Shown here one piece after another: positions 1 to 15,393 of a stretch of DNA of 16,588 nt; within the stretch, counting starts at the first letter, position 1, and every line of letters begins with the position of its first letter. A program made the position numbers and the translations under genes. The notes below the pieces were generated by a model, which was given only the letters and a program-made list of their open reading frames with translations, had not been told where the DNA came from and searched no databases. The DNA is from an uncultured Pseudomonadota bacterium (lineage in GTDB: Bacteria > Oederibacteriota > Muellerivitia > Muellerivitales > Muellerivitaceae), in NCBI GenBank assembly GCA_963770835.1, contig CAVYRH010000017.1:1-16588 (forward strand). The letters are read 5' to 3'.

Positions 1-25
1 TCCACGACGGGTCCCGTCGTGGACA
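1..25. repeat. 28-bp palindromic inter-module site, copy 1 (cut by window edge, one C short in the core)
   Basis: TCCACGACGGG-T-CCCGTCGTGGACA; matches the six other copies. Confidence 0.9.
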
Positions 26-78
26 ACCCGTAACACCTCATCCGAAGCGGCGCGATCTAAATAATTTACTGAATAAGC

Positions 79-1476
79 TTATTCAAAAAGTTCCTGTCCG
101 ACATACTTCCCGGGCTTGGCCCCAGGCGGGCAGGCAAAGATGCCGCTACCCACATGAGTGAGAAACTGGTTCATCATGTCGAACCGGGACATTTTAGTGA
201 ACATCTGAACAAAAGCGGTCCGAGGGTCTTTTTGATAACACTGAAATAACAAACCTGCGTCCATCTCCATGCCCTGGCGCCAAGGCGGCCAGCGTTCGGC
301 AGTAAAAGCCAGGTTATTGTCATAAGAGTAAGCGCGCCGAAGCATCTGAGCGCCGTTATTTTCCTCAGGCGCTCCCAGACGGGCATGGGAATTTTCGGGT
401 ATCACCGAATTACCGTCCTTATCATTGGCCGCCAAATCTAATTTATCGTTCTCAACATTTCCAGTAAGCGGGGCGCCCGAATATTTTTTCCGCCCTACAG
501 TTTGTTCTTGGAAAGCCTTCTTCATACGATCCCAATGCTCCAGGGCGATGCGAATAGGCCGCACTACCATATAAGAACCACCTCTCATCCACTGGGGACC
601 CTCTTTGCCGACCCAGACAAATTGATCCATCGCTTTTGGGTCATCCGTTTTGGGGTTCATGGTACCGTCTTTAAAACCCATCAGGTTACGGGGCGTTTGG
701 CCCTTGGGGGTTTTTGGCACAAAACCATTTTGTTCCCAGCGCAAAGCGGCCAAGCCATCAGCTAGGCGGGTAAATTGCCGCACCGCATGCAAGGCCACTT
801 CAGCGTCATCGGAGCAGGCCTGGATGGAAATATCCCCGCCCGTATGGCTTTCTACTAATTGATCACCGGGAAATTTAGGCAGATCGATCAGCGCCTCGGG
901 ACGGCGGTTAGCCAAACCATAACGGTCTTTGCCGTCTTTACTAAAAAGACCGGGACCAAAACCAAAAGTGACGGTTAGACGGTCAGGAGAAATATCCAGC
1001 ACATCGCCCGAATCCCCTGGGGCCTGGCGCGGGTCCGCGCCCAAATCCTGCCCCGGCTTGCCGCTGGTCATGAGAGCGGCGGCCTTAGTCCAGCTTTTAA
1101 GCAAGGCAATGAGCTGTTTGCGGTCTTTTGCCGTGACATCAAACACCGCGAAGCAGGTGTAGGTTTGCATGGAAGTAAGAATGCCTCCCTGATGAGGGCC
1201 GTAAAAGGGTTCTAATTCGGAAGCGGGTATGGTCACGGTTTCAGGCAGGGCGTCGGTTTCCGAAACGGAGGCCGAACCTGGCAAATCTTCCGTGGTAGTG
1301 GAATCGGTGCCGGAAGAGTAGGAAGACGAATCCGTCTTGGGCGCAGCAGCCTTCGCCGGTGAATCGGCGTAAGAATCCGCCATCAAGACCGAGGTCAAGG
1401 CGAAGAAACCGACACAGATTAAGATCGCGCCCTGTTGAGTCAAATTTTTAGCGCTATCAACAATGATTTTTTTCAT
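79..1476 (-). CDS. Dyp-type heme peroxidase, EfeB/deferrochelatase-like, exported
   Basis: 465 aa. PFYGPHQGGI, RNLMGFKDGT (GxxDG), SHARL (proximal His) and MLRRAYSY (distal Arg) motifs; hydrophobic N-terminus followed by Ser/Thr-rich linker. Confidence 0.92.
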   Translation of the reverse strand: MKKIIVDSAKNLTQQGAILICVGFFALTSVLMADSYADSPAKAAAPKTDSSSYSSGTDSTTTEDLPGSASVSETDALPETVTIPASELEPFYGPHQGGILTSMQTYTCFAVFDVTAKDRKQLIALLKSWTKAAALMTSGKPGQDLGADPRQAPGDSGDVLDISPDRLTVTFGFGPGLFSKDGKDRYGLANRRPEALIDLPKFPGDQLVESHTGGDISIQACSDDAEVALHAVRQFTRLADGLAALRWEQNGFVPKTPKGQTPRNLMGFKDGTMNPKTDDPKAMDQFVWVGKEGPQWMRGGSYMVVRPIRIALEHWDRMKKAFQEQTVGRKKYSGAPLTGNVENDKLDLAANDKDGNSVIPENSHARLGAPEENNGAQMLRRAYSYDNNLAFTAERWPPWRQGMEMDAGLLFQCYQKDPRTAFVQMFTKMSRFDMMNQFLTHVGSGIFACPPGAKPGKYVGQELFE

Positions 1477-1477
1477 A

Positions 1478-2704
1478 CTAGGGTATGGACTCCATCAAAG
1501 TATTCGTATCGTCTTGCACGTAATAAAAAGCTTTTCCATCCGGCGTTAAAGCCAGACCAAACAGATCACCGTTACCTGGCGGCGACTGAGCCTGATCAGG
1601 ATCAATCCACTGGGCGTAAATCTGCTGGCCCGTCGCCGGGTCCACTTCCACCGCTTTACCGTCTTTACCATTACAAACTAGCAAATGACCTTCGGGCGTG
1701 AGAATCATGGCCAGTGGCCAGGCCAATTGGCCGTTCTGCGAGACTATTCTTCCGGTCCCAGCGCTATCCGCACGGGTTCCCGGGTCATCAATGGCGGCGA
1801 TTAAATTATCCAGACCATCGGTGACGTAAAGTGTTTTTTGGTCAGCCGAAAGGGCCAAACCGGTGGGGCCAAATAAAAAATTGTCCCTGTCCGCCCGCTG
1901 GGAAAAGCCGCTGCCGATAACCGCCTGGTCTACCAGCACAGGCGGCTTGCCATCGGGGATGGAAAGTTTTAAACGCAAGACAGTTGAACTATGCAAAACA
2001 GGTGGATAGCCCGTCTTAGGGTCCGTCACATCCGGCCCTGGCACGTCAAACCCTGCCATGCTGATGAAGAGTGTTGCCGTATCACCATTATCAATGACCG
2101 CCATGTCTCCCCAAGGCCCATTGATAGTCTTGTCGGTCCAAACCGAAACTAGATGACCGTTCGGGTCCAGCACCAGCAAACAACCCGGCCCCTTGGTCTT
2201 GGTGGTTCCATCGGTGCTGGGCATGCTGCCCACAATGACCCAACCGCTTTTGAGCATAGCTAAAGCCGTGGTCAACCCCACGCCCACCGGGCTTTGCGGC
2301 AGCTTGTTGGGCAATTGGGCGAAGAGGGTCATCTTTTTTGTGGAAGGGCGGTAGTCCATCAAGGTGGTCCCCGTCCCTTGCAGGTTCGAAATAGCGTTAA
2401 AGTTGGAGATAAGAACATCACCCTTTTCAATGGTCCCCGCCGAAACCGGCGCGATGAAGACCGCGTAGGGATTGACGTCCCCATTGTCCGGAATGGTCGA
2501 GCCCAAAGTAATATGCCGATGAATGGTCTCTAAAAAACCTTTTCGACCATTGGCCTGGGCTGTCGGGGTTGGGCCTACCGGCGCCGATGCGGCCTTATCC
2601 CCATTCGACTGATAATCCCCCGAGTCTCTGGAAGCCGCCATGCCTGGCACTGTCAAAACTGCCGCTATCAACAAACATAAAGCGTTGTATCGGTTCATTT
2701 TCAT
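1478..2704 (-). CDS. Secreted hypothetical protein, probable NHL-like beta-propeller
   Basis: 408 aa. Sec-type signal peptide; repeated blade-like motifs (NGPWGDMAV, GPTGLALSADQKTLYVTD, WPLAMILTPEGHLLV, LFGLALTPDG); 1 bp from the DyP start. Confidence 0.75.
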   Translation of the reverse strand: MKMNRYNALCLLIAAVLTVPGMAASRDSGDYQSNGDKAASAPVGPTPTAQANGRKGFLETIHRHITLGSTIPDNGDVNPYAVFIAPVSAGTIEKGDVLISNFNAISNLQGTGTTLMDYRPSTKKMTLFAQLPNKLPQSPVGVGLTTALAMLKSGWVIVGSMPSTDGTTKTKGPGCLLVLDPNGHLVSVWTDKTINGPWGDMAVIDNGDTATLFISMAGFDVPGPDVTDPKTGYPPVLHSSTVLRLKLSIPDGKPPVLVDQAVIGSGFSQRADRDNFLFGPTGLALSADQKTLYVTDGLDNLIAAIDDPGTRADSAGTGRIVSQNGQLAWPLAMILTPEGHLLVCNGKDGKAVEVDPATGQQIYAQWIDPDQAQSPPGNGDLFGLALTPDGKAFYYVQDDTNTLMESIP

Positions 2705-2727
2705 TTTTTATCCCTTTCTCTTCTAGA

Positions 2728-4206
2728 TCAAAACTGCAAAATGGCTCTGGATCCAATGACAAATTCGTTGCCGATCAAAGTGCCCGGTGCGTTGGGGTTT
2801 TCGATGCCGCCGCTTGGATTGAAGACGTACTGTATGTCCGGCTGAAGCTGGAACCAAGGAAAAACAAAGTATTGGTAAGTGGCCTCAACAAAAGTTTCTC
2901 CGCCCTGTTGAGGGCTGAAGGTACCCGGATTGAAATTACCCGTATCCGCCTCATATCCAGCCACCGCAGAACTGACATGGGCATAGCCCATGCCCAAACC
3001 GAAAACATCGTCCGTACGGTAAGCAAAAGGATCTTTCAGAACGAAGCCGAAATTAGCGCTGAAGTCGATCAAGTTCCGGTCCGGCGGGGCCCATAGAACC
3101 CGAGCGAACAAGCTAAGAGTACGATTCGGGTCTTTATCGCTCCGCCAGATCATTTGGTCTACTACGCCATAGATGGAGTAATTGCCCGTGTGATTCTGCG
3201 GGTTGCCATCGCTGTTGGGGTCCGCCAAGGACAAGCCATCGTCGCTATAGCGTTCATCCGCGAAATATTCACTGTTATACCAAGCGCCTAAACGGTAGGT
3301 GCCCGACAAGGCCGGCTTGGAGTCGTAAACCATGTCGCCCAAGGACGGAAAGGAATATTGGATCTCGGCGATGGCCATCACCCCGCCATTGAGTGGAAAG
3401 CTGAGGCCGTAGGGATCATCCATCTGCGAGTCCGCGCCCGGAGTCGGGTTGGGAGCTCCGTTGAAAACCCCGGCGAGAATATTAATACCGTCCACAGGCT
3501 TCCATTGCAAACGTACACCTAAGTCAGAAAGGGGATAAGCGGGTCCACCGCCCGGCATATCCGCTGAAGGCACCATGGGCCAGCCGAACATGGTATTAAC
3601 GAAGTAAGCAGCGTTACTGCTGTCCATAAATTCTTGGTCCAAGCTCTGTTGCCCAACTTTAACATCAAGACGACTGACCCCACTGCCGTCATAAAATTTT
3701 TGGTCATACCAAATTTCCCAGAAGCGGAACCCGTCTTCTGCCTCGATACCGCTGGCCGTCTGAAGAGTATCCAGATTCTGTTGACTTAGATTGATACCAT
3801 GAACGTTCAAACCGCTAATGTTCAAAAGGCCACCGTGCAGACCAAAGGCTCGAGATGTATCCAATTGAAGGACCGCCTGAGTCAGCCCATCGTAAGTCGC
3901 GCCCTGCTGAATACCACCCGTCAGGTTACCCAAAACCTCGCTGGTCTCTTGCAGGCTCAGCGACATACCAATACTGCTGAGCGCCTTTCGAAATCCCCAA
4001 AGATCACCGAAGAAATATTGGTTACGACTCATCCCATCCAGAAAACCAAAAAATCCAGTGTCCGGGTTCGAAAGAGTAGAATAATCCACCGGCACCGACA
4101 TCGGTGGTGGCGCGGCAAAAACCACGCCAGTCCCCATATAGAAAGCCACAAAAAGAACGACCCGTCTCAATGACAAAACCTGATGAAGTTTTAAATGGAT
4201 CTGCAA
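2728..4206 (-). CDS. OprB-family (carbohydrate-selective-type) outer membrane porin
   Basis: 492 aa. GDLWGFRKAL, EVLGNLTGG, KVGQQSLDQEF, GGGPAYP, EATY..QLQPDIQYVFNP motifs; C-terminal Phe; TTG start preceded by GGGGAG. Confidence 0.9.
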   Translation of the reverse strand: MQIHLKLHQVLSLRRVVLFVAFYMGTGVVFAAPPPMSVPVDYSTLSNPDTGFFGFLDGMSRNQYFFGDLWGFRKALSSIGMSLSLQETSEVLGNLTGGIQQGATYDGLTQAVLQLDTSRAFGLHGGLLNISGLNVHGINLSQQNLDTLQTASGIEAEDGFRFWEIWYDQKFYDGSGVSRLDVKVGQQSLDQEFMDSSNAAYFVNTMFGWPMVPSADMPGGGPAYPLSDLGVRLQWKPVDGINILAGVFNGAPNPTPGADSQMDDPYGLSFPLNGGVMAIAEIQYSFPSLGDMVYDSKPALSGTYRLGAWYNSEYFADERYSDDGLSLADPNSDGNPQNHTGNYSIYGVVDQMIWRSDKDPNRTLSLFARVLWAPPDRNLIDFSANFGFVLKDPFAYRTDDVFGLGMGYAHVSSAVAGYEADTGNFNPGTFSPQQGGETFVEATYQYFVFPWFQLQPDIQYVFNPSGGIENPNAPGTLIGNEFVIGSRAILQF

Positions 4207-4292
4207 CTTGATCTCCCCAATTGAGTATTTTTAGCTCGGTGTGTTTTACGCCCATCCCTGGCTTTCAAAAGGGCGACCCACATTCCACCCGC

Positions 4293-4556
4293 TTATTGCG
4301 GAAAGGAAAATTCTTCCCACTTGCCGCTATCGGTCAAACGATTCAATTGATCGACTAACCCCGGCAACGGGACAGCCGTCTCAGCGGCTAAACTCGAAAA
4401 AAGCTTGGTCATCGCCTTGATCTCCTCGGCGGATAAAAGAATGGTCTTGTTATTCAACTTCAGTGCCCCACGGCCGCACGAACACTGGCTCAAATGGCAT
4501 TGGCCCGCGCTGAATTGGCGTTCAATAGAATGTCCCACAATTACCCCCTCATTCAT
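4293..4556 (-). CDS. Small hypothetical protein with C-H-x3-C-x-C cluster
   Basis: 87 aa, co-oriented between hemP and the porin, ATG preceded by AGGGA; no family recognised. Confidence 0.55.
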   Translation of the reverse strand: MNEGVIVGHSIERQFSAGQCHLSQCSCGRGALKLNNKTILLSAEEIKAMTKLFSSLAAETAVPLPGLVDQLNRLTDSGKWEEFSFPQ

Positions 4557-4577
4557 TTCCCTGGCGATAGCTGGGTC

Positions 4578-4739
4578 TTACTTGGTCAAGTTCAACTTGT
4601 CATTCTTGGTGATACGCAATCGATACTCTTCATCACCGTGAACGATCAAAATTTCGTTCCGCCCCTCAAAAAGTAGCTCGGTGGTCAACCGAAGGGCTTT
4701 AGAAACGCCCTGTGCCTCAGTTTTGTTTTTCTGGTCCAA
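4578..4739 (-). CDS. hemP: Hemin uptake protein HemP/HmuP family (53 aa, absent from ORF track)
   Basis: Manual translation MDQKNKTEAQGVSKALRLTTELLFEGRNEILIVHGDEEYRLRITKNDKLNLTK matches the HemP pattern LF-G--E--I-H----Y-LR-T---KL-LTK; TTG start with GGAG RBS; Fur box directly upstream. Confidence 0.88.
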   Translation of the reverse strand: MDQKNKTEAQGVSKALRLTTELLFEGRNEILIVHGDEEYRLRITKNDKLNLTK

Positions 4740-4755
4740 AGGCCGCTCCACCTAA

Positions 4756-4772
4756 TTGATAATGATTATCAA
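4756..4772. promoter_or_regulatory. Fur box
   Basis: TTGATAAT-G-ATTATCAA contains the perfect 7-1-7 Fur consensus TGATAATnATTATCA, upstream of an iron/heme operon. Confidence 0.88.
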
Positions 4773-4792
4773 CATCACCACAATGATGTCAA
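4765..4792 (-). promoter_or_regulatory. Sigma70-type promoter of the hemP operon, -10 overlapped by the Fur box
   Basis: Minus strand TTGACA (4792-4787), 16 bp spacer, GATAAT (4770-4765). Confidence 0.65.
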
Positions 4793-5059
4793 CACAAAAT
4801 CCAAAAAAAGTTCCAAACTGACTCAACTTAGTATTTAAGAGATTAAAAAGAAGATCCGTACACACTGAGTGGGCGGTTGTTTCTGCGGCAAAAATACTCG
4901 GTCCGAAGATCAAGAAATCTGGATAGGCCTCTAGATCATACGTTTTCAACTAAACCCTCTGATCCAGCTTTGCTTCTACATTAGGCTGACGGCTATATAA
5001 ACCGGCAAGATTAAATAATTTGGTTCCATTAGAAATCCTTGTCCACCGCTTCGTTCTTT

Positions 5060-5087
5060 TGTCCACTCTGGGTCCCCATCGTGGACA
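5060..5087. repeat. 28-bp palindromic inter-module site, copy 2
   Basis: TGTCCACTCTGGG-TC-CCCATCGTGGACA. Confidence 0.92.
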
Positions 5088-5124
5088 ACTTAATCATCCC
5101 AAGTCTCGCCCTTTTTGTTGAATT

Positions 5125-5820
5125 CTAGTAAGTCGTTGTGGCGATATAATCCAGAACGAACTCCGAGTAAGAAGAGGCCCCTGGAAAACATCCATATTGG
5201 GTTGTATCGGCTCCCATATTGAGGGTATAGGATCCAGGGCTATAACCGGGCAAAGAACTATTCAAGAGGGTGTAGGGTGAAGTGAGGTTGGGCCCAAAGG
5301 TTTTGGAATAACTTCCGTTGATGGCAGTGAGATCGTTTTCATTTCCTCCTCCCACCCAAGTAATAGTCAAACTACCCGAACCCGGGGTGAATGTAATATT
5401 ACCTGGCGCTATTTCCGAAGCGGAATAAGTCTTTCCTCCAAAAATGGCCGTGACGGTATAGGGTTGGTTGGCCGTGTAGGTCCAGCCGCCATTGGTTGTT
5501 TGATAAGCGGCACAGGTTATGACCGTCGACCCGCCGGAATAGCTCAAGGTTTCGGTAGAGGTGGAACTTCCATTGGTGACATATGTCAAAGGTGCTGAAC
5601 CTCCGGAATAAGATAACGTAACGGCCGCATTGGTGACGGGTTGAGCGTTACTGTCGACAATACCAGCCGACATTTCCGTTAAACCGGTTGACACCAGGGT
5701 CGTGACGAAGATACCCGCGCCGTTCATTTGGAAGGTGGTCGGGCTGGTTGTGGGTTTGGAGGAACAGGAAACGAACATGACCATGGAGGTTATCAAAAAG
5801 GCAAAAATACAATTTTTCAT
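5125..5820 (-). CDS. Hypothetical lipoprotein, Ser/Thr/Gly-rich, beta-rich
   Basis: 231 aa. Signal peptide II with lipobox-like FVS-C; GAGGGG RBS; sole gene between sites 2 and 3. Confidence 0.8.
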   Translation of the reverse strand: MKNCIFAFLITSMVMFVSCSSKPTTSPTTFQMNGAGIFVTTLVSTGLTEMSAGIVDSNAQPVTNAAVTLSYSGGSAPLTYVTNGSSTSTETLSYSGGSTVITCAAYQTTNGGWTYTANQPYTVTAIFGGKTYSASEIAPGNITFTPGSGSLTITWVGGGNENDLTAINGSYSKTFGPNLTSPYTLLNSSLPGYSPGSYTLNMGADTTQYGCFPGASSYSEFVLDYIATTTY

Positions 5821-5885
5821 AATTACTTCCCCTCCATCAAATAACTTCTTTTAGGATACCACTTCCTTTAGAGAACCCAAGACCC

Positions 5886-5913
5886 TGTCCACTCTGGGTC
5901 CCCGTCGTGGACA
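5886..5913. repeat. 28-bp palindromic inter-module site, copy 3
   Basis: TGTCCACTCTGGG-TC-CCCGTCGTGGACA. Confidence 0.92.
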
Positions 5914-5953
5914 ACCCTTTTCCTCGAAATTTACCCGATTTTACACCTTTTGA

Positions 5954-7656
5954 CCGGAATTTCCCAGATGACCTTCTCTGAAAACATTGCCGGGTAATTT
6001 GTTTCTCATTATATCGCCCCCCCCCGCTTCTTCCATCCGAATCCGGAATTTTCCGTCCTGGGCCACTGAAATAAGCCCCAGGAAAAGGTTTCTGTGCCCA
6101 AAAAAGCTGAAATTGACCTTCTGGAAAGCCAATTCTCGTTGTGAGCGCACACCTATCCTGCGGTAGTCGCTCGGGTTGAAGCCTTGATGCCTTCCTGCGG
6201 TTATCGCAGTACTGGCGCTCGCGGCCTTACCATTGCCAGTAGCCGTATCCGATTGAGGATTTCAGCAAACAGGCGTCGGGAAACCATCACCTCCGCCATC
6301 TGGAAAATAACGTACCGCGAATGACGGATGACATTAGCCCCGATCTTGATGAGTTTTTCCCTCAAGGTCGTTAGCGACCAATGTTTCACCAGTTCTGGCA
6401 GTGCCAGTCGGCGCAGGAAGTTGCCCAGATTGTAGGCCAGGGCGAATAGTTGTAAGCGCACTTGGTTGTCCGCGAAGTCGTGGCAGCTTAGTCTTGTCCA
6501 CTTCATCGCATACTTTCCCTCTTTGATCCACTGCTCAGCCGTGCCTCTTCCGTTGTAGAATTTCACCACCTGGGGTGCCGGTCGTCGCATGTTCGTTACG
6601 ATGAAACCCACCTTTGGGAACAATTCCCCGTTGTGATGTTCGATCTTCGCCACCACGCGGCGGGGTTTGTCCCAGCTGACGGCTTGGTATTGGAAGCTGT
6701 GAAACCGGACAACCGGCTTGTGGGAGGGGCGGCCCACGGGACGGGTTAAAAATGGCTCGATTTCCCGTTGGAGTATGGCATTGGCAGGTTGGCGGATCGC
6801 GTAAAGATATCCTTCGTCTTCTAGGTATTCGTATAGTTCCTGACGGGCGAAAGCCGCGTCACCCCGGAAAAACCGGCTGATGGAAAGACCCCGGTAGCGG
6901 GCAACTACCGGTTCAAGAACCGAACGCCATTCGTGGGCACTGGCCACATTGCCGTTGCGCAACATAGCCCGTTCCAAATCGCCGAACTGGTTGAAGCAAA
7001 ACAGGGGATGGTAACAGGTACAGCCAAAGTAACCGTTGTACAAGGAACCTTCCTGATCCCCGTAGGTCTCGCTCACTGAGCTATCCATGTCGAGGATGAT
7101 CTGTTGTATGGGCTTTTTCTCATGGACTCCATCGATCCATTGGCCCGATAAGTCAATTAAGCCGGTCAAATTCTTCGACTGGGTGAGGACCTCCGTCTCG
7201 AAACGACCCATCTGGCTGGTGGAGGCGGCCTGTTTTTCCCTGGCCCGTCCTCCGATCACATGCCGCATCGCAGGATCGACACTCAGGCGTTCTGCGTCGT
7301 TGGTATCCTCATAACCGGCCAAGCGGCTGAATACCGACTGGCGAAGAAGCGCCGTCATCGTGTGTTGCGTATTCTTACCGGTCCGCCGATCCCAAAGGAT
7401 GTTTTCTGTTCTGTCAGTCAAACCAAAAGCTTCGTCGAGTTCGCGATAGGGAATCAACCCGCCATCGGAAGTGACCTTCGCACCATGGAACTCCAACTTG
7501 AGGCCAGGATCAAAAACCACCCGAAGAGCGTCTTTTCCGCCTTCACCCATTGCATTTCCCCCTCTCATGTTCCCCAACACGAAGAAAAACCTTTGTTTAT
7601 ATGGCCAAACGTTGTCTTATTATACTCGAAAGGAAATTCCATCTGGGAAATCCGGG
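5954..7656 (-). mobile_element. IS1380-family insertion sequence, 1703 bp, intact
   Basis: Terminal IRs CCGGAATTTCCCAGATG (5954-5970) and CATCTGGGAAATCCGGG (7640-7656), 15/17 match; 5-bp target duplication TTTGA at 5949-5953 and 7657-7661. Confidence 0.93.
6201..7550 (-). CDS. IS1380-family DDE transposase
   Basis: TSDGG, GYEDTND, ILDMDSS, YNGYFGCTCYHPL, RGDAAF and YNGRGTAEQWIKEGK motifs; start set at MGEGGK (ORF open from 7580). Confidence 0.95.
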   Translation of the reverse strand: MGEGGKDALRVVFDPGLKLEFHGAKVTSDGGLIPYRELDEAFGLTDRTENILWDRRTGKNTQHTMTALLRQSVFSRLAGYEDTNDAERLSVDPAMRHVIGGRAREKQAASTSQMGRFETEVLTQSKNLTGLIDLSGQWIDGVHEKKPIQQIILDMDSSVSETYGDQEGSLYNGYFGCTCYHPLFCFNQFGDLERAMLRNGNVASAHEWRSVLEPVVARYRGLSISRFFRGDAAFARQELYEYLEDEGYLYAIRQPANAILQREIEPFLTRPVGRPSHKPVVRFHSFQYQAVSWDKPRRVVAKIEHHNGELFPKVGFIVTNMRRPAPQVVKFYNGRGTAEQWIKEGKYAMKWTRLSCHDFADNQVRLQLFALAYNLGNFLRRLALPELVKHWSLTTLREKLIKIGANVIRHSRYVIFQMAEVMVSRRLFAEILNRIRLLAMVRPRAPVLR

Positions 7657-7865: not shown

Positions 7866-7939
7866 CTGCCGGTCCGAGCAAAAAATAAAAGGCCTCAACT
7901 CCTGCGACGAGACCTCAAGTCGAGTCGTGCGGTTTGGAT

Positions 7940-7970: not shown

Positions 7971-7983
7971 GGGGCCTCCGTTT

Positions 7984-8373: not shown

Positions 8374-8383
8374 AACGTCCTCC

Positions 8384-8680: not shown

Positions 8681-8720
8681 AAATCCTCCTAAAATTTTTC
8701 ACCCCCAAAGGGGCGATTTC

Positions 8721-9210: not shown

Positions 9211-9227
9211 TTTGAACGCTCCGCTTT

Positions 9228-9573
9228 TTTATTAGAGGAGAGAGCACCCTCCGGGTGCGCCCCCTCAAAAATCCTTGGGGGCGCATACGGAGCGAGTAAG
9301 GTGTTTGTGTTGGGGCAAATCAATGTCGGCGGGTCCTGCGCTTTGGTGTTAGCAGACCGGGAAAATTCCCAAACAGGTTTTGGGCCGAAAGACGAGGAAC
9401 GAGGCGTGGCCCGTTTGGGAATTTAGGCGCTGACCGATCCCGGCGGCGATAGCCGCCCGTCGATTTGGTTTGCTTCCACTATGTCTTTCGTTTCTGGGGT
9501 TGCCAGGGGTCACTGTCCCTTGGCTAGGGTGGGGATAAAGGGGAGGGTCTTTTCCCTCCCCCTGGGGGGTTCC
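9228..9573. repeat. Long structured non-coding leader, copy A, upstream of radC
   Basis: Collinear homology with 11576-11975; several hairpins conserved in position. Confidence 0.8.
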
Positions 9574-9738
9574 GGGGGATGGCTCGAACGAGCCCACCGC
9601 CCGGGCTAGGGTGGGCACCTGGCCCGTCGCTTTCAAAGCGAGGGCCTCGCAGTGGTGGTGCAAACAGCATTGAAGCTGTTTGCAAAAGGGTAGGGGTACT
9701 TCCCTTCCCTGCTTTTATGATTTTCGAGGCGCGGCAAA

Positions 9739-9789
9739 GGGAAGGTTACACGGCCAAAGGCCGGCGAACCTTCCTCAATCCCGATAGGG
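9739..9789. repeat. 51-bp exact direct repeat, copy 2
   Basis: Identical to 7815-7865. Confidence 0.9.
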
Positions 9790-9812
9790 GCCGCACCGAG
9801 ACAAAGAACACC
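9776..9812. repeat. 37-bp direct repeat flanking the addiction module, left copy
   Basis: CAATCCCGATAGGGGCCGCACCGAGACAAAGAACACC, one mismatch to 10586-10622. Confidence 0.9.
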
Positions 9813-9819
9813 TTAAAAC

Positions 9820-9856
9820 AAAAAAAGCCCCAACCGGTACAGAACCGGGGGGCTTT
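9820..9856 (-). terminator. Rho-independent terminator after the antitoxin gene
   Basis: AAAGCCCC(AA)CCGGT..ACCGGGGGGCTTT imperfect stem with a T7 tract on the minus strand. Confidence 0.65.
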
Positions 9857-9877
9857 ACATTTGAATTAGTTTTTTAT

Positions 9878-10195
9878 TTAGGCACTCTTTTTCCCGCGGG
9901 CGAGTTCCCTTTCAAATAGAATCCGCACCCCGAAAGCGTGAAGAACCTTTTCTAAACTCGAAAGGGTGGGATTTCCCTTCTCGGAAAGCATCGTGTAAAG
10001 GGATTCCCTCGCAAGTTGTGTTTCCTTGGAAAGCTTTTTCATCCCGCCTAGGGCGTCGGCCACGTTCTTCAATGCCTTCAAAAAGTATTTAAAATCTCCG
10101 GTTTCCCAAGCGGCGTTTATGTATCGGACCCGTGTTTTAAGGTCTTGAAGTTCTTCAAACAAATAACTTTTATGGTCAATCAATCCAAATTTCAT
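9878..10195 (-). CDS. Addiction module antidote, HTH antitoxin (HigA-like)
   Basis: 105 aa. FLKALKNVADALGGMKKLSKETQLARESLYTMLSEKGNPTLSSLEKVLHAFG; 4-bp overlap with the upstream toxin. Confidence 0.9.
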   Translation of the reverse strand: MKFGLIDHKSYLFEELQDLKTRVRYINAAWETGDFKYFLKALKNVADALGGMKKLSKETQLARESLYTMLSEKGNPTLSSLEKVLHAFGVRILFERELARGKKSA

Positions 10196-10530
10196 TTCAC
10201 GCTCCCTTTAAAAGCCGCCCATAGCTTGGTGGCTTTCTTTGTGTCATTATCCTGATTGTCTTTTTCTCCCCCACAAACCACGACGATGATGGCTCCCTTA
10301 TGATAGCCGTAATAAACCCGGAAACCTCTTCCGTAATGAATCCTTAATTCCCAAAGGCCCCCGGTCTTTGGCAGGTCGTGATGATCGCCAAAATTCCCGT
10401 CCTCCATCCGGTCAACCGCCATCCGTATAAGGTCCTTGGCGGTTTCGTCCTTTAAGCGGCGGTGCCACTCCTTGTATAAAACCTTACCGTCTACCTCCAA
10501 ATATTTAACTACAAAGGGGTGGTTTTCCAT
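10192..10530 (-). CDS. Addiction module killer, RelE/ParE-superfamily toxin (HigB-like)
   Basis: GNFGD, GGLWELRIHYGRGFRVYY and CGGEKDNQDND motifs; toxin-first order; start set at MENHPF just below the promoter. Confidence 0.9.
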   Translation of the reverse strand: MENHPFVVKYLEVDGKVLYKEWHRRLKDETAKDLIRMAVDRMEDGNFGDHHDLPKTGGLWELRIHYGRGFRVYYGYHKGAIIVVVCGGEKDNQDNDTKKATKLWAAFKGSVK

Positions 10531-10540
10531 GCCTGAACCT

Positions 10541-10569
10541 AGTGTAATATTTATATTACTCATTGTCAA
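10541..10569 (-). promoter_or_regulatory. Promoter and operator of the addiction module
   Basis: Minus strand TTGACA-17 bp-TACACT; inverted repeat GTAATAT-TT-ATATTAC at 10544-10559. Confidence 0.72.
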
Positions 10570-10585
10570 ATCTTCCTTTCGAAAA

Positions 10586-10622
10586 CAATCCCGAAAGGGG
10601 CCGCACCGAGACAAAGAACACC
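10586..10622. repeat. 37-bp direct repeat flanking the addiction module, right copy
   Basis: CAATCCCGAAAGGGGCCGCACCGAGACAAAGAACACC. Confidence 0.9.
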
Positions 10623-10624
10623 CC

Positions 10625-10660
10625 AAAAAAAGCCCCCCGGTTTGAAACCGGGGGGCTTTT
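10625..10660 (-). terminator. Rho-independent terminator after ardC, possibly bidirectional
   Basis: AAAAGCCCCCCGGTTT-G-AAACCGGGGGGCTTTT perfect inverted repeat with A/T tracts on both sides. Confidence 0.82.
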
Positions 10661-10684
10661 CTTCCTGAAAGGATGGAGCTGTTA

Positions 10685-11557
10685 TTAAGCGGCTTCCTCC
10701 TTCTTTTCAAATTTCACGCCTAAGATAAAGTCGGCTGCGGATTGGGCGAGTGATGCCGCCCGGAAAATGGCGCGGGTGTCATCCTTTAAAACCTTGATCC
10801 AGTTTTGGACATAGGCGGCGTGTTGGGTGTCGTATTCGTAGCCGACATGCCCAGCCAAGAAAGCCCCGCCTATTTCGGCGACAAGTTCCTCGAAGGCATA
10901 ATCAACTGAACCGAAAACCAGGGACTGCTTGCGGTTAAGCCGTTTTGGGTGGCCGCTCCAGTGCGTCAGCTCATGGTAACTCGTGGAAAAAAATTTCTCC
11001 TCCGTCTTGAAGGAATTGCGAGGGGGCAGGTTGATATAGTCCAAAGTTGGGGAGTAAAAAGCCTTGTCGGGGTTTTCCTCCACGATCTTCGCCCCGGATT
11101 GGGTGAGGATGCGCTCGGCCTCCTCGTTCTTGTTGAAAGGCTTTTCCTCGGCGCTCTTGGGCCGCAAGTGGTCAAGTCCCTCGGTCTGGTCAAGGTTGAA
11201 AACCGTAAAATATTTTAGGTATTTGATGACCTTCTTTTCAAAGTCCCCTTCCGCTTTTTCCTCCTTCACCGTTAAGGGCTTGAAGAAAATGACCTCAACC
11301 CCCTTGGCCCCGGCCTTGATGTTGCCTCCCGCTGTTTTGGCCTGTTGGTAGGTGAGCCAAGAGTTACAGGAAAAACCCTGATGGCTCGCAACCGAGGTAA
11401 GCCAAATGACATTCACCCCCCGGTAAGCCTTCCGGGTGGCGGCGTTCTTGGGGAAGTTCCCGGTTTTGATCCAGGGCGTTTCCCAAAAAAGATTTCCTTT
11501 CTCCATGTCCTCCAAAATTTGCTTGGTGATTTTCTCCATCAAATCGTTTGTTTTCAT
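10685..11557 (-). CDS. ardC: ArdC-family anti-restriction / ssDNA-binding protein (DUF1738 plus zincin-like domain)
   Basis: 290 aa. WETPW, YRGVN, WLTYQQA, FTVFNLDQTEG, AFYSPTLDYINLP, HELTHWSGH, YAFEELVAEIG and YVQNWIKVL motifs. Confidence 0.93.
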   Translation of the reverse strand: MKTNDLMEKITKQILEDMEKGNLFWETPWIKTGNFPKNAATRKAYRGVNVIWLTSVASHQGFSCNSWLTYQQAKTAGGNIKAGAKGVEVIFFKPLTVKEEKAEGDFEKKVIKYLKYFTVFNLDQTEGLDHLRPKSAEEKPFNKNEEAERILTQSGAKIVEENPDKAFYSPTLDYINLPPRNSFKTEEKFFSTSYHELTHWSGHPKRLNRKQSLVFGSVDYAFEELVAEIGGAFLAGHVGYEYDTQHAAYVQNWIKVLKDDTRAIFRAASLAQSAADFILGVKFEKKEEAA

Positions 11558-11575
11558 CTGGCCTGCTCCCTTTGA

Positions 11576-11975
11576 TTTATTAGAGGAGAGCCGCCCTCCG
11601 GGTGGGCCCCCTCAAAAATCCTTGGGGGCCCAAACGGAGCGAAAGAGGTGTTGTTTATGGAAAACCGAAGACCGGGGGTTGTGCGCTTTTCGGTTTTAAG
11701 CAAACGGGGATTTCTCTCCCCTGGCCTTGCTGGCCGGATAAGACGACAGAGGAGTCCCGGCCAAGGGGAGAGAAAAGGCGCTGACCGGTCCCCGCGACGA
11801 AGTCGCCCACGGATTTGGTTTTCTTCGAGAATGTTCTTTGCGGGTTTCAGGGGGGTACATAGGGGGAATTTCCCCTATGAGCGAAGCAAGGGGGTGTGGG
11901 GGATCGTGGGGTCACTTCCCGCCGGGCTAGGGATGGGAAAAGGGAAGGGTCTGTTCCCTTCCCTTGGGGGGTCCC
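11576..11975. repeat. Long structured non-coding leader, copy B, upstream of ardC
   Basis: Collinear homology with 9228-9573. Confidence 0.8.
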
Positions 11976-12077
11976 CACCCGGGCCAGGGCGGGTGAAGGG
12001 CAGGGGTAATTCCCTGCGGAAGGAAAAGTCAAAGAAGATAATCGTTTCCTAAAAAATCTGGTCTTAGAGGAGAGGAA

Positions 12078-12905
12078 ATGATAAATACCCCAAAAAAATC
12101 CATCCAAGCGGTTCTTTATGTCCGTGTTTCTTCGAAGGAACAGGAAAAAGGGGGCTTCTCCATCCCAGCTCAATTGAGATTGCTTCGGCAATATGGGCAA
12201 ACCCAAGGGTTTACCATTTTGAAAGAGTTCCAGGATGTGGAAACCGCCAAGCGATCCGGGCGGGAAGGCTTTGGGGAAATGGTCAATTTTCTTTTAAAAA
12301 ATTCGAGCTGCAAATATTTGTTAGTCGAGAAAACAGACCGCTTGTACAGAAATTTTAAGGATTATGTTTCTTTAGAAGATATGGATGTGGAGATCCACCT
12401 GGTCAAGGAAGGGTCCATCGTCTCGAATAATTCCAAATCGGCGGAAAAGTTCATCCACGGCATTAAGGTCTTAATGGCCAAGAACTATATTGATAACCTC
12501 TCCGAGGAAACGCGAAAAGGAATGACCGAAAAGGCGGCGCAAGGCATTTGGCCTACCGCTGCCCCTCTAGGTTACAAGAACATCACCGGTCGCAACGGCA
12601 AGAGAACCATAAAGCCAGTTCCCAAAATGAGCAGGATGATTCAATCACTGTATAAGGACTATTCGAAAGGTTGTTTTTCCCTCAATGAATTAACAAAAAG
12701 GTACTGGAAAAAGGGATTGGTGGTCCGCAAAAACAAAAGGAACCTGTCCAAGAGTTCCGTTTATAAAATCCTGACCAACCGGATGTATACGGGGTATTTC
12801 AAGTGGAGGGGGATCCTTTACCGTGGAAAGTACAAGCCCATCATTCCGCAAAAGCTTTGGGATAAAACCCAAAAGGTTTTGGGAAAACATTTCCGAATAC
12901 GATAG
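12078..12905 (+). CDS. Serine recombinase (resolvase catalytic domain plus recombinase DNA-binding domain, no zinc ribbon)
   Basis: 275 aa. YVRVSSKEQ catalytic Ser motif, S..AQ, VEKTDRLYRN, LSEETRKGM, APLGY, ILTNRMYTG, PII..LW; GAGGAG RBS. Confidence 0.92.
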   Translation: MINTPKKSIQAVLYVRVSSKEQEKGGFSIPAQLRLLRQYGQTQGFTILKEFQDVETAKRSGREGFGEMVNFLLKNSSCKYLLVEKTDRLYRNFKDYVSLEDMDVEIHLVKEGSIVSNNSKSAEKFIHGIKVLMAKNYIDNLSEETRKGMTEKAAQGIWPTAAPLGYKNITGRNGKRTIKPVPKMSRMIQSLYKDYSKGCFSLNELTKRYWKKGLVVRKNKRNLSKSSVYKILTNRMYTGYFKWRGILYRGKYKPIIPQKLWDKTQKVLGKHFRIR

Positions 12906-12919
12906 TCAGTAGTACTGAC

Positions 12920-12947
12920 TGTTCACTTTGGGTCCCCGTCGTGGACA
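12920..12947. repeat. 28-bp palindromic inter-module site, copy 4 (degenerate left arm, beside the recombinase)
   Basis: TGTTCACTTTGGG-TC-CCCGTCGTGGACA. Confidence 0.88.
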
Positions 12948-12961
12948 GCTGTTTTCGTTGA

Positions 12962-13246
12962 TTAATGGACGGCCAGATGGTGGCGTTTCTTCTTAGCCAA
13001 GTAGTGCTGGTCCAACCCCTGGCGAAGGATCGATTTGATCACTGCTTGCCGGCTAACATTCATTTCGCGAACTAATCCGTCTAATTCCTTAAGCATGTTT
13101 TCCGCAAAATCCACGTTAACTCTGCGGATGGCCGGCATCATTTTTCCGTGGTTCGTGAAATGTTTTGAAACATCCTCCCCCTTGTCTGCCATTTGAGCGA
13201 TTTTTTCCGCCGTTGGGGCAGCTTTTGATTTATGAATGCTTTTCAT
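12962..13246 (-). CDS. CopG/RHH antitoxin, BrnA-type
   Basis: Start set at MKSIHK (94 aa); RRVNVDF..ELD...NVSRQAVIK RHH motif; overlaps the BrnT stop. Confidence 0.82.
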   Translation of the reverse strand: MKSIHKSKAAPTAEKIAQMADKGEDVSKHFTNHGKMMPAIRRVNVDFAENMLKELDGLVREMNVSRQAVIKSILRQGLDQHYLAKKKRHHLAVH

Positions 13247-13508
13247 ATAGCTTCCTTTCTTCCTTGGTGGATTTCCAGAGAGTGACCAGGTGAAGGTATT
13301 CCCCCTCCCTGTCATACCTCTCTTCATAGATCACCGTATAAAGCCTATCCCCAACCCAACCAATAGCCCGCCATTGCTCCGGCACCTCGGATCGTTGATC
13401 CAAGTAGTAAGGGCTTTCCCAGAGTACCTGAACTTCCTCAAAACCGATTCCCCGTGTGGGGTTCCGGCGGAGACTATTGCTCTTTTTAGCATCGAACTTA
13501 AAACGCAT
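13230..13508 (-). CDS. BrnT-family ribonuclease toxin
   Basis: 92 aa. F.FD..K..., GIGFEE, RAIG, TVIYEER and KEERKLYE motifs. Confidence 0.85.
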   Translation of the reverse strand: MRFKFDAKKSNSLRRNPTRGIGFEEVQVLWESPYYLDQRSEVPEQWRAIGWVGDRLYTVIYEERYDREGEYLHLVTLWKSTKEERKLYEKHS

Positions 13509-13519
13509 CTAGGCTCCAT

Positions 13520-13556
13520 GTATAACTGTTATACCATCAATAATTTGATATCGCAA
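13520..13556 (-). promoter_or_regulatory. Promoter and operator of the BrnT/BrnA module
   Basis: Minus strand TTGCGA-17 bp-TATAAC; palindrome GTATAAC-T-GTTATAC at 13520-13534 over the -10. Confidence 0.7.
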
Positions 13557-13580
13557 GAAGGTTAATATTGTGAAATTTGC

Positions 13581-13608
13581 TGTCCACGACGGGTCCCCGT
13601 CGTGGACA
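13581..13608. repeat. 28-bp palindromic inter-module site, copy 5 (perfect)
   Basis: TGTCCACGACGGG-TC-CCCGTCGTGGACA. Confidence 0.95.
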
Positions 13609-13682
13609 ATAAACTTACTCGATTTTACCCATCAAGAATTGTTGGTGGCGAGTTCACCTAACATTTGTAGAGTCCAAACGAT

Positions 13683-14546
13683 CTATTTCTTATTTTTCAA
13701 AGCAGAAATATAAGGGTCCGTTTTCAATTTATTTTTAATTACTTCGTAAACACCGCCATCCACATCTTTTAGTTTATTAACGATCTGATCAGCCTCATCC
13801 CCCTTGAATATCCCGTAAAATTTATCCCATCCCTCCTTCATGCGGCCTTGATACCAATATAAAGTGGCGACTTTGCAAGCGTCATCTAGTATCCCATCCT
13901 GGCACTTGTCCCCCTTTAATTTTTCGAGCTCTTGGTCAAAAAACTTGGGAAACTTATCGTTTGCGGGAACATATTTTCGGATTTTCAGGTCATAAGCGAA
14001 AATGAGTTTTGGAACAACGCAAGAACCAAAGGCACCCAATAGATGCTTCCAAGGATCTGATAAATCGATTATTTCGACGTTCCCGTCGCCATTAATATCC
14101 TCCAACTCAAAATAACCCGCTCCCAACTGTCCGAAATCCCTGCCGCTGAATAAAACCGTCATTTCTTTTCCGAGGTTCAAAAACAGATAATCGCCGCCGC
14201 CATTCGCGCCTCCACCCCACCAACTGAGGACCAATTGGGTATCGGGGCCGGGGAATAACTTCCCGACTTGGATTTTGTTCCATTCCCGGCTCTGGTCATC
14301 CGTCCAGTCCGGATAGCTTTTCATCGCCATCCCCCAATAGGATTCGAGCACTTTTCCATTCTTTTTTACTTGGATTAAGATTGGATCTCCATAATCATCG
14401 GGATCGGTTGGCTTTGGTTTCAAATTGCGAACAATTTCATATTCCCCTATTTTTAAGTCATCACTTTTTATAACTTTGACTTCCGAACTAAAGAGTTCCG
14501 TCGGGAGAAGTATTAAAAAAAATATTCCAATTAATACTTTTTTCAT
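13683..14546 (-). CDS. Secreted hypothetical protein with one FG-GAP/EF-hand-like DxNGDG loop
   Basis: Start reassigned to MKKVLIGIFFLILLP (signal peptide; 287 aa); EDINGDGNVEI motif; sole gene between sites 5 and 6. Confidence 0.78.
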   Translation of the reverse strand: MKKVLIGIFFLILLPTELFSSEVKVIKSDDLKIGEYEIVRNLKPKPTDPDDYGDPILIQVKKNGKVLESYWGMAMKSYPDWTDDQSREWNKIQVGKLFPGPDTQLVLSWWGGGANGGGDYLFLNLGKEMTVLFSGRDFGQLGAGYFELEDINGDGNVEIIDLSDPWKHLLGAFGSCVVPKLIFAYDLKIRKYVPANDKFPKFFDQELEKLKGDKCQDGILDDACKVATLYWYQGRMKEGWDKFYGIFKGDEADQIVNKLKDVDGGVYEVIKNKLKTDPYISALKNKK

Positions 14547-14571
14547 CGTTGTATACCTTTCCAAAACTGTT

Positions 14572-14599
14572 TGTCCACGACGGGTCCCCATCGTGGAGA
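14572..14599. repeat. 28-bp palindromic inter-module site, copy 6
   Basis: TGTCCACGACGGG-TC-CCCATCGTGGAGA. Confidence 0.92.
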
Positions 14600-14617
14600 A
14601 GAAATACCGACTGCGTG

Positions 14618-15016
14618 TTAAAAGATTTGAACTTCCTTGATAACCCTGGCCATGTGGTTGAAATCCGCGTCATTATGCAAAAGCTGTAGCTTGTGCTCAA
14701 TCGCAACCTGGCAGATCAGGCAGTCTATGGAACTGCGGGGCGTAACACCTTTTTCCCGGCAGCGGAAATAAATCCGCGCCGCTTGGGCGTAGGATTCCAG
14801 GCCCCGCGTAACTCCATAAATGATTTGGGTATCCAGGTATTCCCGGAGATTCCGGAAATCTTTCTCGGAGGAAGCGCCCTGGAGGATTTCCTGATAGACG
14901 TGTTCGGTGATCCCATAGGGAACCCTGCGATCCAAAATCCCCTCAAACCGGTCCACTGCGGCGTTCCGCCGTTCCCTTAGGAAATCAATAAGAACCGACG
15001 TATCCACGAGGATCAA
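14618..15016 (-). CDS. vapC: VapC PIN-domain toxin
   Basis: 132 aa. MILVDTSVLID, EILQG, SSIDCLI and LLHNDADF PIN motifs. Confidence 0.93.
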   Translation of the reverse strand: MILVDTSVLIDFLRERRNAAVDRFEGILDRRVPYGITEHVYQEILQGASSEKDFRNLREYLDTQIIYGVTRGLESYAQAARIYFRCREKGVTPRSSIDCLICQVAIEHKLQLLHNDADFNHMARVIKEVQIF

Positions 15017-15219
15017 GAGCCGTGACTTACACGAAGCATTTTGTGGTCGTACCCTTTTCGAAAATGGACCTTGCCCTTCAGGTCCCGCAAATCGCGCCGG
15101 CCATGATGGGCCACGAATTCCCGCAAGGCGACCTCAAAAAGTTCTTTTTTTGTTTTAGCCCCTGAAAAGCGAAGGGCTTTTTGAACCAAGTCATCATCCA
15201 ACACAACATTCGTGCGCAT
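15013..15219 (-). CDS. vapB: VapB antitoxin
   Basis: Start set at MRTNVVLDDDLV..A....G.KTKKE (68 aa); AAGGAGG RBS; 4-bp overlap with vapC. Confidence 0.9.
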   Translation of the reverse strand: MRTNVVLDDDLVQKALRFSGAKTKKELFEVALREFVAHHGRRDLRDLKGKVHFRKGYDHKMLRVSHGS

Positions 15220-15235
15220 TTTTATACACCTCCTT

Positions 15236-15272
15236 ATACACCATCCTAGTGTATCGAAAGCCCGCCCGTCAA
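15236..15272 (-). promoter_or_regulatory. Putative vapBC promoter and operator
   Basis: Minus strand TTGACG-18 bp-TAGGAT; inverted repeat ATACAC-N7-GTGTAT at 15236-15254 straddling the -10. Confidence 0.55.
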
Positions 15273-15365
15273 CGAACGTTGTCCGTTCCATCGGGGCTTA
15301 ATCATTTCACCCTGAGCGGCTAACAGGCCCTGGTAGCCCAAAGTCAAATAATCAGTACCACTGAT

Positions 15366-15393
15366 TGTCCACGACGGGTCCCCGTCGTGGACA
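15366..15393. repeat. 28-bp palindromic inter-module site, copy 7 (perfect)
   Basis: TGTCCACGACGGG-TC-CCCGTCGTGGACA. Confidence 0.95.

Follow-up and report, generated by a model that had tools for sequence, protein, structure and literature searches.

To our knowledge, all known integrons use a single enzyme lineage, IntI, and folded attC sites. In pdif modules, the orientation of the sites alternates and, of the XerD and XerC arms, one is conserved and one is variable. Here we analyse a stretch of DNA of 16,588 nt (the window, to which all positions refer unless a contig or genome is named), which is the entire contig C17 of a 4.58-Mb, 26-contig metagenome-assembled genome (MAG), termed G000, of an uncultured peat/soil bacterium of the candidate division FCPU426. 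The window contains a row of gene cassettes separated by 28-bp palindromic sites, together with a gene for a short serine recombinase. An earlier sequence-only reading had proposed that the sites belong to a system of gene capture and shuffling, and this proposal is supported by the clustering of the sites and by breakpoints that lie inside them.

Co-oriented 28-bp sites in the window

The sites have a 13-2-13 geometry, in which the 28 bp form a palindrome with an asymmetric TC centre. Seven copies of 28 bp had been claimed; six are full sites, and the seventh, at positions 1–25, is partial and slightly aberrant. The sites and two small features connected with them are:

1–25, + strand: site 1, partial, truncated by the contig start; its centre is one C shorter
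5060–5087, + strand: site 2, TGTCCACTCTGGG TC CCCATCGTGGACA
5886–5913, + strand: site 3, junction between the array and the recombinase-bearing backbone
12905–12919, + strand: small palindrome GTCAGTAGTACTGAC, between the recombinase stop codon and site 4
12920–12947, + strand: site 4, adjoining the recombinase gene, with a special left arm TGTTCACTTTGGG and a consensus right arm
13581–13608, + strand: site 5, perfect consensus
14572–14599, + strand: site 6, TGTCCACGACGGG TC CCCATCGTGGAGA
15341–15365, + strand: putative remnant of the recombinase gene 3' end with the small palindrome (aagtcaaaTAAtcagtaccactgat), a short similarity
15366–15393, + strand: site 7, perfect consensus

The + strand carries GGGTCCCC at all six full sites, so that their polarity is uniform, and the positions confirm that all sites of the window are intergenic and co-oriented. 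Four of the seven sites are within three mismatches of the perfect 28-mer, where none is expected (200 shuffles), and the other three deviate at left-arm positions 7–11, in which CTCTG or CTTTG replaces CGACG. The start-to-start spacings of 5062, 826, 7034, 661, 991 and 794 nt equal the module lengths given before, and the distance between a stop codon and the next site was measured at 14–74 nt. That all cargo shares one strand holds for nearly all genes, except that the serine recombinase gene (12078–12905) lies on the + strand, opposite to every other Pfam-supported gene in the window. The right flank of site 3 is homologous to the far-end flank of an array in the related genome G004. The small palindrome ahead of site 4 is conserved in G021 and in a remnant in G004, and the short similarity at 15341–15365 is likely, if tentatively, a leftover of the 3' end of the recombinase gene and its palindrome.

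Arrays across the genome and the family

Allowing up to seven mismatches and adding five indel variants from nhmmer gave a set of 93 sites in G000. Of these, 83 are grouped in 18 arrays, and the array continues beyond the window, as had been suspected for its left side. Neighbouring sites are co-oriented in 65 of 65 cases, and the sites are therefore not scattered in both orientations. Gaps of at most 12 kb between neighbours were observed 65 times; 2000 random placements gave 19.3 such gaps on average and 33 at most. The median site-to-site spacing is 1132 nt, and the stretches between sites are 0.3–12 kb long and hold genes, unlike clustered regularly interspaced short palindromic repeats (CRISPR), in which direct repeats of 28–37 bp alternate with spacers of 25–50 bp beside cas genes; no CRISPR array was detected when the genome was scanned for simple repeats. 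There are 42 cassettes of at most 1.6 kb, 36 of which have a single dominant open reading frame (ORF), and in all 36 the gene and the + form of the site lie on opposite strands. Stop codons precede the site by a median of 27 nt, and start codons follow it by a median of 50 nt. Genome-wide, the cargo comprises GNAT acetyltransferases, BrnTA, VapBC, MazF, beta-lactamase-fold proteins, hydrolases, secreted proteins and many unknowns, a profile typical of integron cassettes. Several G000 contigs start or end in a site, as is to be expected where an assembly is broken by arrays.

The 28-mer (at most three mismatches) was found in 19 of the 24 other family genomes, and its sequence is kept across at least 14 genera. 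Beyond the family, there was one match in a sister family, and the 15 other genomes of the phylum included in the search gave none. When one genome per bacterial and archaeal species was scanned, 96 stretches with the 28-mer were recovered; the 80 of these that were listed come from MAGs, among them ones titled FCPU426 or Firestonebacteria and ones that are probably mislabelled. In G004, a long-read relative with 5 contigs, 63 sites are distributed over about 11 arrays, including a model array of 14 sites in which each cassette consists of one gene or one toxin-antitoxin pair. We conclude that the family-wide cassette system is real.

Site polarity is constant along whole contigs, even between arrays that are hundreds of kb apart (21 of 21 sites are minus in contig C3). 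On the 2-Mb contig of G004 it flips once (G004:C2, between 1,202,680 and 1,231,169), and two exceptions occur elsewhere in G004. This suggests a site polarity at the level of the replichore; GC skew, considered as its explanation, was too weak to read.

Perfect or near-perfect palindromes directly 3' of genes could also be structural or regulatory hairpins similar to repetitive extragenic palindromic (REP) elements, with a role as RNA stabilisers, terminators or protein-binding sites. Cassettes would then be shuffled not by a dedicated recombinase but by homologous or replication-slippage events at short repeats. REP elements are dispersed between genes in hundreds of copies, many of them as inverted pairs, and flank a RAYT gene. 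IS110-type elements and group II introns, both of which target the sites described here, target REPs and terminator hairpins in other bacteria, and G000 has two genes that resemble REP-associated tyrosine transposases (RAYT; 86.4 bits to NF047646, for which the cut-off is 80). However, the sites are co-oriented and clustered in accessory-gene arrays, not dispersed, and the RAYT-like Y1 transposase genes (C3:276294 and C26:665960) are far from them. These transposases also do not co-vary with the sites among 24 family genomes: G021, with about 47 sites, has no RAYT match, whereas G011 and G019 have a RAYT match and no sites. Moreover, one arm of the site changes without compensation while the other is kept, which indicates that sequence and not just pairing is conserved, and the recurrence of one 28-mer in so many genera argues in the same direction. 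The coding strand has no T-run 3' of the hairpin, which argues against a reading of the sites as intrinsic terminators. Taken with the position of the breakpoints described below, we regard hairpins of the REP kind as a very unlikely explanation.

Cassettes are joined to different neighbours within the site

The position of exchange was studied in 336 unique sites with 40-nt flanks from G000 and its relatives, of which 28, flanked by introns or insertion sequences (IS), were then dropped. Eleven clusters have only the left flank in common and 20 only the right flank. Both inside the G000 MAG and between genomes, an identical cassette end is joined to differing neighbours exactly at the site; one 891-bp cassette occurs at four places in G000. 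The comparison of relatives and of other arrays reveals gain, loss and re-assortment of cassettes, with breakpoints within the site, and it is these precise, central breakpoints that speak further against REP-like hairpins. Rare variants at positions 11, 12 and 13 travel together with the left flank; for positions 18 and 21, it is the right flank that the variants accompany. Since the arm variants segregate with their own flank, the exchange takes place within T14–C17, between positions 13 and 18. T14 and C15, with mismatch rates of 0.030 and 0.018, belong to the most constant positions of the site, and the rate at position 13 is 0.177. Thus, the 13-TC-13 layout, the conserved centre and the exchange between positions 13 and 18 are those of a serine recombinase crossover site, and cassettes very probably move through site-specific recombination at the 28-bp sites.

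The 28 bp can also be parsed as a dif-like 11-6-11 site, as found in pdif modules or IMEX elements. The cassette system would then be real, with a tyrosine recombinase as its enzyme, for example the sole stand-alone Xer-like protein of the host (gene at C11:156053-157117). The pattern of one conserved and one variable arm would agree with this, and a housekeeping enzyme would account for arrays in genomes that lack the serine recombinase. However, the scores of the Xer-like protein, 161.6 bits to XerC and 147.8 bits to XerD, are far under the curated cut-offs of 335 and 330, the variation at position 13 segregates with the left flank and so fits a 2-bp overlap better than one of 6–8 bp, and all sites are direct repeats, unlike those of pdif modules. 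A genome scan with a generic dif motif gave no exact match and five unconvincing matches with one mismatch, two of which are the two strands of one palindrome. None of the twelve tyrosine recombinase genes (PF00589) of G000 is linked to an array, nor does any of them lie recurrently in or beside one. A multi-copy family of tyrosine integrases of 356–371 aa is likewise not array-linked and occurs in the site-free genomes G011 and G019 and in other families of the phylum. Finally, a Xer enzyme would leave unexplained why a serine recombinase gene adjoins a site in all twelve of its copies (see below), and we consider this alternative improbable. A search for an integron integrase (IntI, a tyrosine recombinase with an extra segment) also found none: in the whole genome, the best score with TIGR02249 is 44.6 bits, against a cut-off of 265.

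A short serine recombinase gene adjoins the sites

The window encodes the following recombinase:

12078–12905, + strand: short serine recombinase of 275 aa, with a resolvase catalytic domain (PF00239) and a recombinase domain (PF07508)

This is the one PF00239 gene in the 4.58-Mb genome, and it ends 14 bp ahead of the site at 12920. The protein terminates where the CxxC zinc ribbon of its 510–515-aa relatives begins. It therefore has neither the zinc ribbon nor the coiled coil of the large serine recombinase family, of which, judging from its domains, it is a derivative and not a standard member. In a large protein database, clusters of at least 68% identity consist of proteins of 275–283 aa that lack PF13408 in 19 of 19 cases, and below 60% identity the matches are complete or fragmentary large serine recombinases of the ordinary kind. 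Among five intact genes, the ratio of nonsynonymous to synonymous substitution rates (dN/dS) is 0.08–0.16 in seven of ten pairs, dS being saturated in the others, from which it follows that the short form is a maintained protein. The best NCBIfam matches are Ccr models, although the match to CcrB (70.2 bits, cut-off 900) is weak and far below the curated score, and matches in a sequence search of the PDB cover the catalytic domain only.

In the reported LI integrase-attP structure, the zinc ribbon contacts half-site positions 16–24, the recombinase domain reads the inner part of the half-site, with helix H at positions 9–11, and the coiled coil in the ribbon domain controls attP x attB selectivity (PMC3783163). 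A recombinase that lacks the ribbon would accordingly be expected to recognise half-sites of about 13 bp. With the ribbon and coiled-coil domain gone, no control of directionality would be expected either, which fits a 13-2-13 site that serves for both excision and insertion.

We sought copies of the recombinase gene in 31 genomes of the family and found 12, in eight genomes. Five are intact (G000, G004, G020, G024 and G043) and seven are 5'-truncated or remnants (G021, G002, G004, G046 and three in G043); two additional short remnants, L046 and L090, are probable. In all 12 copies the 3' end of the gene adjoins a site in the same orientation, which in G020 is split by a group II intron. On the 5' side, 10 of the 12 have no site within 4–8 kb, and the gene therefore marks one end of an array. 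The arm proximal to the gene is special and conserved: it reads TGTTCCTTTTGGG in three genera and has the left-arm sequence of site 4 in the window. In G004, the array next to the gene ends, on its far side, in an arm that repeats the gene-proximal one in inverted orientation, and such paired special arms are expected if cassettes entered one ancestral 'home' site. ArdC adjoins the recombinase in the window, in G043 and in G020, and in G043 RadC lies past the array. On the basis of this synteny, the window module 5914–12919 is a circular permutation of an order that runs from the recombinase through site and array to RadC and on to ArdC. Sites occur in all five genomes that have an intact short recombinase, four of which are among the six richest in sites.

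Two of the truncated copies, G021 L151:4349-4902 and G002 L154:4789-5099, are one common deletion derivative, in which the 3' half of the recombinase gene is fused to a homologue of window positions 5944–6119, from the opposite end of the 7-kb module.

The recombinase might instead be the integrase of a mobile element with ArdC and RadC that uses the 28-bp site for its own attachment, with some other mover for the cassettes. ArdC lies beside the gene in three genomes, the 7-kb module of the window sits between two direct sites as an integrated element would, and other mobile elements, namely two IS110-type elements and two group II introns, demonstrably target the sites. However, a second site on the 5' side, within 4–8 kb, is absent from the same 10 of 12 copies, the neighbours of the recombinase in G004 and G024 are unrelated genes, and the enzyme lacks the domain by which integrases distinguish attP from attB. 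Moreover, the recombinase is separated from the remaining backbone by whole arrays in G043 and G004, which indicates that it is exactly at its site that cassettes accumulate. We thus hold an integrase that only borrows the site for unlikely. On balance, we lean towards the 275-aa serine recombinase as the enzyme of the cassettes, given the position of its gene and the geometry of the site.

Proposed mechanism

A dimer of the short recombinase would bind the two 13-bp arms of a site. Two such sites would synapse, the four strands would be cut at the central TC, with 2-nt 3' overhangs and 5'-phosphoserine links, and one half would turn by 180 degrees before the ends are rejoined. The predicted nucleophile is the first serine of an RVSS motif close to the N-terminus. 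Because TC is not self-complementary, viable products would arise only from sites in the same orientation. Direct repeats would in this way release a cassette as a one-site circle, which could enter again at any site, and arrays would stay co-oriented. An enzyme without the zinc-ribbon and coiled-coil part, which in large serine integrases confers attP x attB directionality, would be expected to work both ways on identical sites. The ArdC/RadC backbone that carries the recombinase would include a 'home' site of its own, at which cassettes accumulate, and arrays that lack an intact copy of the recombinase, which are the majority, would be served in trans or be fossil. There is about an even chance that the whole constitutes a second, independently evolved integron, family-wide in FCPU426, in which a large serine integrase that lost its directionality module recombines cassettes in both directions on minimal 13-TC-13 sites and builds dozens of arrays per genome from a home site borne by a plasmid or an integrative and conjugative element (ICE).

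A number of observations weigh against this proposal. Despite a common flank, the left arm differs in 2 of the 11 left-shared clusters and the right arm in 7 of the 20 right-shared clusters, mostly at the hypervariable position 19; positions 19 and 10, which are symmetric CpG positions, appear to be mutational hot spots. Variation is also much greater in one arm than in the other, for which a symmetric dimer gives no obvious explanation. The counts across related MAGs are non-independent, and some duplicates within the G000 MAG may be strain variants. Several site-rich genomes have no match to the recombinase, either at E ≤ 1e-20 (G041, about 40 sites, 89% complete; G044, about 21 sites, 86% complete) or at E ≤ 1e-5 (G012, about 14 sites, 99% complete; G018, about 12 sites, 89% complete), and G023, with about 25 sites, has only a probable short remnant of the 3' end of the gene; all five are MAGs, in which arrays assemble poorly. 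G000 itself holds about 18 arrays and one recombinase gene. Given its neighbours of plasmid or ICE type, namely ArdC, RadC and PRiA4_ORF3, the recombinase could be the integrase of an element that merely targets the sites. We also found no characterised example of such a truncated large serine recombinase in the literature. Ten public sequencing runs from five studies contain part of the window, the best covering 0.36 of the sampled words. Four runs were assembled in a search for circles and deletions and yielded only short contigs that end or diverge at sites and no usable evidence for either; the sides of the 'joints' are 20–28 nt, which is the repeat itself.

Cassettes and backbone of the window

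The gene labels assigned in the sequence-only reading (Dyp peroxidase, SGL and OprB porin; a lipobox protein; BrnT with a ribbon-helix-helix (RHH) protein; a signal-peptide protein; VapBC) hold. The modules between the sites are:

26–5059, − strand: module 1, with a Dyp-type peroxidase (79–1476), an SGL/beta-propeller protein (1478–2704), an OprB porin (2728–4206) and small ORFs (Pfam)
5088–5885, − strand: cassette 2, with a 231-aa lipobox protein (5125–5820)
5914–12919, mixed strands: backbone module, with an IS, RadC, a toxin-antitoxin pair, ArdC and the serine recombinase (Pfam; synteny with G043 and G020)
6201–7580, in the backbone module: IS (DDE_Tnp_1_4; Pfam)
8689–9210, in the backbone module: RadC (Pfam)
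9878–10710, in the backbone module: HI1420-type antitoxin and Gp49-like toxin (Pfam)
10685–11557, in the backbone module: ArdC (Pfam)
12948–13580, − strand: cassette 4, with a BrnT-like toxin (13230–13508) and an RHH antitoxin (12962–13327) (Pfam)
13609–14571, − strand: cassette 5, with a 293-aa signal-peptide protein (13683–14564)
14600–15365, − strand: cassette 6, with VapB (15013–15291) and the VapC PIN toxin (14618–15016) (Pfam)
15394–16588, − strand: cassette 7, with the C-terminal part of a PA14-domain protein, truncated by the contig end

Several of these modules recur elsewhere. The left flank of module 1 is also found beside a site in another MAG (L039), cassette 5 recurs in contig C15 beside another left neighbour, cassette 6 recurs at C15 26433–27198, and a complete, 980-aa copy of the PA14-domain protein is a cassette in C15 (2938–6437). 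A Pfam search gave no family for the lipobox protein of cassette 2, and the 134-aa ORF at 11648–12052 (+ strand) has a low-complexity translation and no family match.

Within the PA14-domain gene, positions 15863–16182 hold eight degenerate repeat copies at spacings that are multiples of 6 nt (24–72 nt), in a stretch with a G+C content of 63%. The intergenic stretches of the 7-kb backbone module also hold several small repeat families, which consist of 90–95% identical pairs (7801–7865 with 9725–9789, and 9247–9305 with 11594–11652) and of five copies of G-rich hairpins (at 7756, 9527, 9676, 11930 and 11986).

Elements that target the sites and further observations

Group II introns of two kinds target the sites, with ten matches to RF02003. 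One is about 0.8 kb long, has no ORF and begins directly after the site on the coding strand (G000 C15:216-1015, L009); it accounts for the recurring flank '...ctggcacga|site', of which there are about 12 copies. The other, of 1.95 kb, carries a reverse transcriptase/maturase gene and lies within the site, 2 nt off its centre (C20:about 2092-4031, L005; G020 L150:about 7170-9110). There are also two elements of the IS110 family, with transposases of 358 aa and 381 aa. The first lies directly against the outer edge of a site, to its left or right, and its end sequence is constant; the second is found within arrays or 1.5 kb from lone sites. Copies of these elements lie in G000 at C3:45328-46500, C3:81921-83100, C8:165072-166200 and C3:102573-103117, and also at C3:40298-41443 and C11:94771-95916. 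As movers of cassettes, both the IS110-type transposases and the group II introns were rejected, since they insert into or abut sites and their flanks carry no cassettes.

A solo Cas1 gene recurs as a cassette, and its 5' end is joined to a site in every case (G000 C15:16146-17186, C16:36080-36925 and C3:47275-48120; G004:C1:431976; G014). The copy in C3 has an in-frame TAG and is followed by a gene for a Dam-type methylase and a DndB-like gene. Cas1 was found in 4 of 15 family genomes searched, two of these with weak partial matches (E about 1e-7). As a candidate for the integrase Cas1 was discarded, being itself cassette cargo, with three copies in G000 of which one has the in-frame TAG.

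In G014, a RAYT-like gene with a DnaA-C-like tail is amplified, with about 19 matches. Its full-length copies mostly have one or two in-frame TGA codons and are about 66% identical to the query; these TGA copies could be pseudogenes or reflect recoding. In G000, C10:6765-10013 holds three consecutive tyrosine recombinase genes of the 'recombinase in trio' type, adjoined by a palindrome at C10:6594-6620, and a fluoride riboswitch (RF01734, 51 bits) is located at C15:31-96, at the edge of the cassette-rich contig C15.

Comparison with known systems

Our full-text literature searches found, among the matches listed, no description of a gene-cassette array system that is based on a serine recombinase, and the publications that mention FCPU426, among the matches listed, look like surveys. 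If the 275-aa enzyme acts on the 28-bp site, it would be a naturally minimised and probably bidirectional serine recombinase, possibly of use as a compact tool, and would offer a direct test of the model in which zinc ribbon and coiled coil impose directionality on serine integrases.

The site resembles site I of res in Tn3/gamma-delta (28 bp), the hix and gix sites of Hin and Gin (26 bp) and the att sites of large serine integrases in having inverted half-sites and a 2-bp centre, and, as in serine recombinase crossover sites generally, the asymmetric central dinucleotide sets the polarity. Its outer TGTCC appears similar to the resolvase motif TGTCYNNTA. However, these known sites serve cointegrate resolution, inversion switches or the integration of phages and ICE, and there are one or few per replicon, not dozens between cassettes. 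Besides the small palindrome at the recombinase-proximal site, the present system has no accessory sites or enhancer.

The staphylococcal cassette chromosome (SCC, including SCCmec), which is moved by Ccr, also consists of serine-recombinase 'cassettes' that are bounded by direct repeats and can be stacked in tandem at one site. SCC elements, however, are tens of kb long, have their own full-length ccr genes and use a single chromosomal attB, whereas the cassettes described here are 0.3–3 kb long, mostly free of an enzyme gene and spread over many loci, and the candidate enzyme has neither zinc ribbon nor coiled coil.

The pdif modules of Acinetobacter plasmids, which depend on XerC/XerD, likewise have 28-bp sites that bound small accessory or toxin-antitoxin modules moving between replicons, mostly without a dedicated recombinase gene. 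In contrast to their alternating sites, those of G000 are direct in 65 of 65 cases. Moreover, the sequence is unrelated to dif, variation within the would-be 6-bp spacer follows one flank, and there is a physical linkage between the sites and a serine recombinase gene.

The closest parallels are with integrons, above all sedentary chromosomal integrons, and with clusters of attC sites lacking integron-integrases (CALINs). Both they and the system described here have rows of compact, co-oriented and mostly single-gene cassettes that re-assort at the sites and carry toxin-antitoxin, GNAT, secreted and unknown cargo. A special site and the recombinase gene mark one end, and numerous arrays carry no enzyme gene. 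In both, IS110/IS1111-type elements and group II introns parasitise the sites: the site-targeting introns are paralleled by the group IIC-attC introns of integrons, and the IS110-family elements resemble the IS1111-attC elements. However, there is no IntI here, and the candidate enzyme is a serine and not a tyrosine recombinase. The sites are also not attC, as had been noted before: attC is an imperfect palindrome of 57–141 bp that is conserved in structure but not in sequence and is built with R''/L''/L'/R' boxes (RYYYAAC ... GTTRRRY), whereas the present site is a 28-bp palindrome that is conserved in sequence across genera and lacks GTT or AAC boxes. The crossover is central here and lies at G|TT of R' in attC, the recombinase gene converges on the cassettes where the enzyme gene of an integron diverges from them, and each genome has many arrays (about 11–18). 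Thus, the system works like an integron and yet has neither of the features that define one, IntI and attC. If the proposal is correct, it would reveal a traffic of accessory genes in uncultured soil and peat phyla that integron finders have missed, and cassette arrays would be a convergent solution, built here from parts unrelated to those of integrons.

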